64,000 nt of DNA from Rickettsiales bacterium (GCA_047627215.1 JBLHTM010000002.1:158-64157); one strand, 5' to 3'; shown: positions 28,631 through 29,203, counted from the first letter of the stretch. The notes: a model not told the origin generated them from the letters alone. Numbers and translations: made by a program.

Positions 28631-28707
<77 letters not shown>

Positions 28708-28947
28708 AATCATCTTCCAGTACAATCCAAAAACATCCATTCAGGCTTTATCTAGCAAACTTCTAAAGATTGCACTCTTTCAACAAGAATCAATAAAATC
28801 TAAAATTTTTGTATATACAAAATAATACCATTTTCCATCACGCTTTCTCTCCGCGAGCGCACTAAAATCAAAGATTTTAGCAATACCATTTACCATATAA
28901 AGATGGGAAATGGTATAATGTATAAATAAAACATACATTATGAATTT

Positions 28948-29203
28948 ATGACAAAATTAACCGATATAACAATCAAAAGACCTAATACCATTTCCACAAA
29001 TTAACTTCTCTCTTAACTTCATCTTTATGATTTTTAATTTTTAATTCTAAAGTTTGCGGTATCTAGATACAGCTTCACTTTAGAATTAAATTTAAAAATC
29101 AAAATATTTTGTTAAGAGAGAAGTTAATTTATGGAAATGGTATAAGACTAAAGATAAGGACTATTTATTGTTTGATGATGGTGATTTTCGTTTACTAATT
29201 TAA
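28948..29203 (+). pseudogene. Remnant (about 31 codons) of a P4-type tyrosine integrase N-terminus, interrupted by a 157-bp palindromic element
   Basis: Removing 28986..29142 plus one TAA copy restores MTKLTDITIKRPKTKDKDYLLFDDGDFRLLI*. This resembles the Arm-DNA-binding consensus LTDxxIKxxKPxxKxYKLxDGxGLxLxV. It lies 240 nt downstream of tRNA-fMet. Confidence 0.6.
28986..29142. mobile_element. 157-bp near-perfect palindromic MITE-like element with a TAA target-site duplication
   Basis: The arm TACCATTTCCACAAATTAACTTCTCTCTTAAC... mirrors ...GTTAAGAGAGAAGTTAATTTATGGAAATGGTA. The centre is GTATCTAGATAC, and TAA flanks both ends (28983..28985 and 29143..29145). Confidence 0.7.

Follow-up and report, generated by a model that had tools for sequence, protein, structure and literature searches.

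The locus lies within a 64,000-nt window (the whole stretch of DNA analyzed here, G000:C2:158-64157) of a Rickettsiales draft genome, G000, whose assembly of 1.30 Mb in 98 contigs is 87% complete. An initiator tRNA-Met gene with a CAT anticodon (28631-28707, plus strand) was predicted by ARAGORN and scored 64.5 bits against the Rfam tRNA model; nothing else exceeded threshold in the Rfam search. Direct reading of its sequence revealed two features of initiator tRNAs, a C1xA72 mismatch and an A11:U24 pair, together with only two of the three usual initiator G:C pairs in the anticodon stem. This gene is the integration target of a former island. Downstream of it, a spacer on the attL side (28708-28822, plus strand), which is also found in the same-genus genome G005, leads past a 90-bp MITE to a putative integrase relic that is split by a 157-bp hairpin MITE. 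Two genes follow on the minus strand: a RhuM/Fic-DOC gene (29234-30211; Pfam Virulence_RhuM, 1e-25, and Fic, 6e-12), with which the cargo of the remnant island begins, and a gene for a pentapeptide-repeat membrane protein (30285-31613; Pfam Pentapeptide_3), which is probably cargo as well. Farther along the window, a 388-aa open reading frame (35290-36456, plus strand) begins 2 nt after uppP/BacA (34380-35288) and matches only the HHH_6 domain of DNA polymerase III alpha, i.e., it is a C-terminal fragment. The core domain of that polymerase (DNA_pol3_alpha, PF07733) had no match in the 87%-complete assembly, and the fragment may stem from a split gene, from a rearrangement or from a chimeric join.

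The 157-bp element (28986-29142) runs from TACC to GGTA around the center GTATCTAGATAC and forms a single long hairpin when folded as DNA (-50 kcal/mol; z = -15.4 relative to shuffled sequences). It had been described, in an earlier reading made from the sequence only, as a near-perfect palindrome of this size. The hairpin, its length and its borders all stand, while "near-perfect" was an overstatement because the arms are 81-86% complementary and the element is 84.5% identical to its own reverse complement. Plant miRNA precursor models in Rfam scored far below threshold on this hairpin and were rejected as generic hairpin artefacts. A TAA lies on either side exactly as that reading had it, base for base, at 28983-28985 and 29143-29145, and the left copy spans the codons CCT AAG of the uninterrupted gene.

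The same reading expected more copies of the palindrome with TAA-type flanks, and the 1.3-Mb genome indeed holds about 11, with matched TNA flanks. Every copy that could be aligned in register has TACC...GGTA termini. Four copies are full length (C2, which is the one at this locus, C7, C11 and C19) and differ by 0-3 bases: those on C2 and C7 are identical, the one on C11 has one different base and the one on C19 has two. This near-identity indicates that the 157-bp MITE spread recently. Flanks are TAA/TAA in five copies, TGA on two partial copies, and TTA on two contig-end halves (probably of one copy) as well as on one further copy. Neither the 157-bp nor the 90-bp element contains an open reading frame, and both have the terminal inverted repeats TACCATTTCC...GGAAATGGTA. 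Copies of the 157-bp element are mostly intergenic and often sit at the ends of genes. At two of them (G000:C7:9326-9328 and G000:C32:13125-13127) the TAA duplication doubles as the stop codon of the adjacent gene; we take the gene on C7 to resemble a uracil-DNA glycosylase, judging from its N-terminal sequence only. Insertion at a TAA or TGA stop codon regenerates the stop, which may provide a neutral niche for an element that targets TNA.

The 90-bp element (28826-28915; TACCATTTTCC...GGGAAATGGTA) shares its 11-12 terminal bases with the 157-bp MITE and is likewise bordered by TAA on the left (28823-28825) and on the right (28916-28918). Seven copies are present in the genome. Four are full copies of exactly 90 bp each, and their flanks are TAA/TAA, TTA/TTA, TGA/TGA and TAA/TAA. 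The ATACCATTT motifs found here are the ends and the internal hairpin of this complete MITE; as parts of it, they were rejected as candidates for solo ends or arm-type sites. A promoter-like TTACCA-18-TATAAT with an upstream TG (28890-28919, plus strand; 10 of 12 matches) points toward the ATG of the integrase stub at 28948 and is built from the 90-bp MITE's right end together with the adjoining TAA duplication. It is a consensus match only, of a kind less frequent here than in shuffled sequence.

G005 has the same locus, lacks both MITEs, and carries a single TAA at each place: ...ACAAAG-TAA-TATATAAATA... where the 90-bp element would lie and ...AGAGTCC-TAA-GACTCAAGATAAGG... (GTCC-TAA-GACT at the junction) where the 157-bp element would lie. 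The clean empty site that the sequence-only reading had constructed by deleting the longer element with one TAA (160 bp) therefore exists in nature, and the comparison of the tRNA-fMet locus with relatives that it had suggested uncovered not one empty MITE site but two. Across both families, all nine intact young copies have matched flanks (TAA six times, TTA, TGA and another TAA). More family copies occur in G004, G006, G014 and G007. Among older copies, in G004, G014 and G007, 8 of 13 have matched flanks, TCA/TCA among them, and the middle base is unmatched in several old copies. The middle base differs from copy to copy and is the same on the two sides of any one copy, and TGA and TCA copies have no TA at their ends; the duplication is thus a 3-bp TNA and not TA. 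A TA-only duplication with one extra base at the element's end was rejected on the same TGA/TGA and TCA/TCA copies, which have no TA beside their ends. The repetition lies far outside what chance would give: the genome has its ~11 copies, and a 24-nt word from the terminus was found in only 2 of 301 sampled genomes of the order (G000 and G027), with almost no matches for a reversed control.

Long hairpins that are mostly intergenic, that often adjoin gene ends and for which the host assembly yielded no transposase could also be REP-like or RPE-like repeats, i.e., structural or regulatory sequences that spread by recombination or gene conversion, with the flanking TAA a mere sequence preference. 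We regard this as highly improbable. A sequence preference is at odds with a middle base that agrees left and right in each young copy (the TGA/TGA and TTA/TTA copies among them) and with an empty site holding exactly one TAA, and spread by recombination is at odds with termini equal to those of an autonomous insertion sequence (IS), described below. The 157-bp hairpin is a real MITE: it is short and non-coding, has terminal inverted repeats, a target-site duplication, an empty site and dispersed copies, and shares its ends with an IS. As a family it is new, within an already known kind of element.

The integrase relic is in two parts. The first (28948-28982, plus strand) encodes MTKLTDITIKR and contributes the first two bases of a Pro codon; the second (29146-29203, plus strand) ends in ..KTKDKDYLLFDDGDFRLLI and a stop codon at 29201-29203. 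At present the frame from the ATG at 28948 reads MTKLTDITIKRPNTISTN*, as the inserted MITE adds a stop after 6 codons, i.e., the host frame is not kept open. When the flanks are joined through one TAA, the frame becomes MTKLTDITIKRPKTKDKDYLLFDDGDFRLLI*, the exact fusion of reading frames that had been predicted for removal of the element plus one TAA. Pfam, including PF13356, gave no match to this 31-aa peptide. A search with PF13356 across the family recovered P4-like integrases in 20 of 61 genomes, and in 14 of these 20 integrase loci the rebuilt peptide aligned by tblastn at the exact start (the first ~30 positions) of Arm-DNA-bind_3. The best two matches (KLTDREIKEAKPKDKKYFLFDDGNLRLLV and KLTDRQVKEAKAKDKNYFLFDDGRLRLLI) are 65.5% identical over 29 residues, and each of these two integrases follows a co-oriented 77-nt tRNA-Met(CAT) at a distance of ~190 bp.

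Since PF13356 gives no match on 31 residues, we built a custom profile from the integrase N-termini of the 14 relatives. The peptide scored 32.7 bits against it, and the best of 5000 composition-preserving shuffles reached 14.5; when the three closest sequences were left out of the profile, the peptide scored 20.9 against a shuffle maximum of 11.1. Of the two checks that had been proposed for the peptide, PF13356 and TBLASTN, the first was therefore negative, and the second, joined by the profile, was positive; the match of the peptide to the N-termini of P4-type integrases exceeds chance by far. A stub of only 31 residues with no PF13356 match, in a genome with no P4-like integrase of its own, might instead be a chance open frame whose likeness to integrases is an accident of Lys/Asp/Leu-rich, AT-rich sequence. 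This would have to explain both margins over the shuffles, 65.5% identity to two integrases at the same place beside tRNA-fMet, and the correct position and orientation of the stub, and we find it scarcely credible.

The deletion junction with the rest of the integrase gene falls directly after 29203, and G005 has the same junction. There the stub bears further deletions of 13 nt and 2 nt, which argues for decaying DNA and not for a conserved small gene. The catalytic Phage_integrase domain is absent from the locus, and it is for this reason that we call the feature a relic rather than a gene. Elsewhere in the G000 assembly, PF00589 matched only on C9 and C21, whose recombinases are presumed to be of Xer type, and searches with PF13356 and PF00589 found no P4-like integrase. 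These data suggest that the 31-codon stub is a genuine relic of a P4-like integrase, a case of ordinary genome decay.

An intact homologue of the lost island is present at tRNA-fMet in G015 (G015:C7:30000-48200). It comprises the tRNA gene, a 401-aa integrase (Arm-DNA-bind_3, Phage_int_M and Phage_integrase), PrimPol/DUF3987, Hachiman (HamA plus a helicase) and hipBA, and its far border, ~15 kb from the tRNA, is a 23-bp attR that repeats the tRNA 3' end perfectly (TTCAAATCCAGCCCCCGCAACCA). This supports the earlier proposal that an island integrated at tRNA-fMet lost most of its integrase. In the window under study, no repeat of the tRNA 3' end longer than 12 nt was found in direct orientation as a candidate attR. 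Nor did synteny fix the right border of the island: in G001 and G002 it is lost immediately past the tRNA, and in G000 fabD is on a different contig. The cargo after the same tRNA in G001 and G002 is different (hipBA, a HigB-like gene, HTH-M78 and Mrr), and neither genome has a counterpart of the pentapeptide-repeat gene downstream of tRNA-fMet. The tRNA-fMet gene is a recurrent island hotspot in this family, and the cargo of relatives there includes Hachiman, hipBA, Mrr and Fic. A 41-nt copy of the 5' half of tRNA-Met (88% identical) also lies in G001, 2.2 kb downstream of the real tRNA and between hipA and the higB-like gene (3407-3447 of locus L062, on G001:C6); it may be the scar of an older integration or rearrangement.

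The RhuM/Fic gene is 93-98% identical to those of G005 and G006, set beside 64-70% amino-acid identity for RsmD. In G006 the RhuM/Fic cassette begins at the same base (29231) and follows a different spacer. At tRNA-fMet, RhuM/Fic behaves like a mobile cassette.

To what do the MITEs owe their mobility? In a species-representative collection, the same ends occur at contig ends of two Rickettsiales MAGs (JABJNB01 and CAJQHT01) with flanks of TAA or TTA, and from these termini the contigs continue into coding sequence. The right-arm end of the 157-bp MITE agrees with the IS end in CAJQHT01 (G077) at 31 of 32 bases. A full IS is present in the metagenome contig Ga0209264_1017457 (L110): it measures 1112 bp, reads TAA|TACCATTTCCATAAATTAACTTCT...GGAATTGGTA|TAA, and agrees with the end of the 157-bp MITE at 24 of 24 bases. 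It is the only full-length element with the MITE termini that was recovered. Its two reading frames together encode a transposase of ~330 aa, with HTH_32, HTH_33 and HTH_29 in the N-terminal part and DDE_3 (PF13358, 3.7e-25) in the C-terminal part. Against the IS630 model NF033545 the two parts scored 81.7 and 141.7 bits (positions 4-133 and 133-298), and among named elements the Wolbachia IS630-like element ISWpi10 family comes closest, at 45% identity. The parent of the MITEs is thus an IS630-family IS closest to Wolbachia ISWpi10.

A 3-bp TNA duplication is a hallmark of the IS5 group (IS1031/IS427) and of PIF/Harbinger, and it was on this basis that the sequence-only reading pointed to elements of that type. 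For PIF/Harbinger, PMC2213677 is one example of a published account of the 3-bp target-site duplication. The TNA duplication is confirmed here, and as a pointer to the transposase it was misleading, as the full element with these ends encodes an IS630 (DDE_3) transposase. That the hairpins were mobilized by an IS5-group or PIF/Harbinger-like transposase is also opposed by related IS630 copies elsewhere that share TAC(C/T)A..TCC ends and TNA flanks, and no IS5-type gene (DDE_Tnp_1 or DDE_Tnp_4) was seen between such ends. We consider mobilization by such a transposase largely refuted and very unlikely.

The two transposase frames of the IS630-family parent meet at a conserved ..FKK(N).. motif on a run of A8-A9. 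This split is present in every related IS examined, from five sources (L110, L159, L170, L172 and L173), and the relatives with this arrangement span four other genera, one complete genome alone contributing 11 copies. Because the split is kept across related ISs, it looks like conserved programmed slippage and not like damage or pseudogenization. A two-frame transposase gene is a known arrangement in the IS630 family. No intact transposase of the parent IS was found in the 87%-complete G000 assembly, and a DDE_3 search of G000, G004, G014, G027 and G077 had no match; the IS interiors are unassembled in these MAGs. The sole trace of the IS in the G000 assembly is an 82-nt relic (G000:C23:11209-11310) with 79% nucleotide identity to the L110 IS and 62% identity over 34 aa; the relic has an internal stop.

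IS630, ISY100 and Tc1/mariner elements insert at TA and produce a 2-bp duplication (Feng & Colloms 2007, PMC2170065). Neither the MITEs nor the autonomous copies follow this rule; both have a 3-bp TNA. A related IS (TACCAATCTCC...GGTTGGTA) has 10 full copies in the complete genome G268; nine of them have matched TNA flanks (TAA five times, TTA twice, TCA and TGA), and the tenth has an unmatched middle base. Related IS copies in G298 and G162 are flanked by TTA/TTA. Two copies of the ISWpi10 family in Wolbachia CP114181 have TAA/TAA and, in a rearranged context, TGA/TTA, the latter possibly the product of recombination between copies. These results suggest that the 3-bp TNA duplication, as opposed to the canonical TA, is a property of the whole IS clade. 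A literature search outside ISfinder found no report of an IS630 element with a 3-bp or TNA duplication, and the ISWpi10 paper gives no duplication data.

A further hairpin element, of ~162 bp, lies at G000:C1:27155-27316 and has other copies on C45, C17, C88 and C42. Its interior is dissimilar to those of the 157-bp and 90-bp MITEs; in its ends (TACCAAGTCC...GGAACTTGGTA) and its TTA/TTA flanks it conforms to the ISWpi10-like IS type. Going by these ends and flanks only, this is probably one more MITE family, the third, that belongs to the same transposase clade. We tentatively propose, at somewhat less than even odds, that an ISWpi10-like IS630/Tc1-mariner clade, widespread in Rickettsiales and marked by TAC(C/T)A..TCC ends and by ORFA/ORFB joined at the A8-9 run, uses T-N-A sites with a 3-nt stagger for integration and has given rise to at least three hairpin MITE families in this small genome; if it is absent from ISfinder, this would be an undescribed target-site rule in the most thoroughly studied of the cut-and-paste superfamilies, whose hallmark is a 2-bp TA duplication. 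The 3-bp TNA duplication in IS630 relatives is the noteworthy twist in an otherwise mostly ordinary story of mobile DNA. An IS630/Tc1-mariner lineage with a natural TNA duplication offers a comparison for what sets the stagger and the TA requirement. For annotation, uncultured Rickettsiales gain a name, exact borders, a TNA rule and a parent transposase for two or three repeat families that had no annotation.

One joint explanation accounts for the locus, and we give it a probability of roughly 0.85: a P4-like island at tRNA-fMet decayed and was later hit by two IS630-derived MITEs at TAA. A P4-like integrative island would once have been inserted at the initiator tRNA-Met gene, in its 3' end. 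Everything past integrase codon 31 would then have been lost to a deletion that fused the dead stub to the RhuM/Fic and pentapeptide-repeat cargo. Later, and in this lineage only, the 90-bp MITE would have entered the spacer and the 157-bp MITE the stub, each duplicating a TAA. For both insertions, an IS630-family transposase, its two frames joined at the A8-9 slippery run, would have been supplied in trans, bound the MITE ends and excised the element. The excised MITE would have been rejoined at T-N-A with a 3-nt stagger, the repair of which would leave the 3-bp TNA duplication; the transposase may still be active at present.

Between deletion and insertion, the already-decayed stub with its RhuM/Fic segment may have been exchanged laterally or swept through the genus. 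Window positions 28708-28827 are 94% identical to G005:C8, and over stub, spacer and RhuM/Fic the two genomes are 93-94% identical, but the core flanks (rsmD and the tRNA flank) are only ~79% identical, which points to lateral exchange or a sweep of the decayed segment. More specifically, homologous recombination anchored on one side by the tRNA may have brought in the already truncated stub and RhuM/Fic from a congener. This variant draws on the high identity of the segment and the shared deletion junction, on the ~79% identity of the adjacent rsmD region (70% amino-acid identity for RsmD), and on the G006 cassette that starts at the same base after another spacer. The comparison, however, comprises three genomes whose contigs end inside the region, and slower divergence of the stub-RhuM/Fic segment would fit as well; we see the import as evenly balanced. 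It is compatible with decay of a P4-like island followed by two MITE insertions, and it does not replace that explanation.

The stub resembles P4-like (CP4-57/IntS-type) integrases in its N-terminal arm-binding motif (LTDxxIKxxKxKDKxYxLxDxxxLxLLI) and in its place, ~150 bp downstream of a tRNA (with the MITE removed) and in the same orientation. Unlike intact members, it retains only 31 codons and lacks the catalytic domain, and the window yielded no attR. Rickettsia palindromic elements (RPEs) are likewise palindromic repeats of Rickettsiales genomes and are alike in size (~100-160 bp). RPEs are noted for inserting in frame within coding genes, and we know of none with a recognized terminal inverted repeat, target-site duplication or parent IS. 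The MITEs described here differ in that all three are defined, and in that the copy in the stub brings a stop codon and the others are mostly intergenic.

IS5-group elements (IS1031) and PIF/Harbinger with its Tourist MITEs are similar in their 3-bp TNA (TWA) duplication, but their transposases fall in another superfamily than the DDE_3/IS630 enzyme of the autonomous partner found here. Among IS630-derived bacterial MITEs, RUP (Streptococcus pneumoniae) and Nezha (cyanobacteria) have TA duplications. Like them, the elements in G000 are short, non-coding, hairpin-forming, multi-copy and mostly intergenic, with IS630-type ends; unlike them, they duplicate TNA, share no sequence similarity with either, and reside in an uncultured Rickettsiales host. 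The parent IS, in turn, resembles the IS630 family (IS630, ISY100 and ISWpi10) and Tc1/mariner in its size of ~1.1 kb, its terminal inverted repeats and its HTH plus DDE_3 transposase. Canonical IS630 members duplicate the 2-bp TA, whereas the clade described here appears to duplicate a 3-bp TNA in which the middle base is free.
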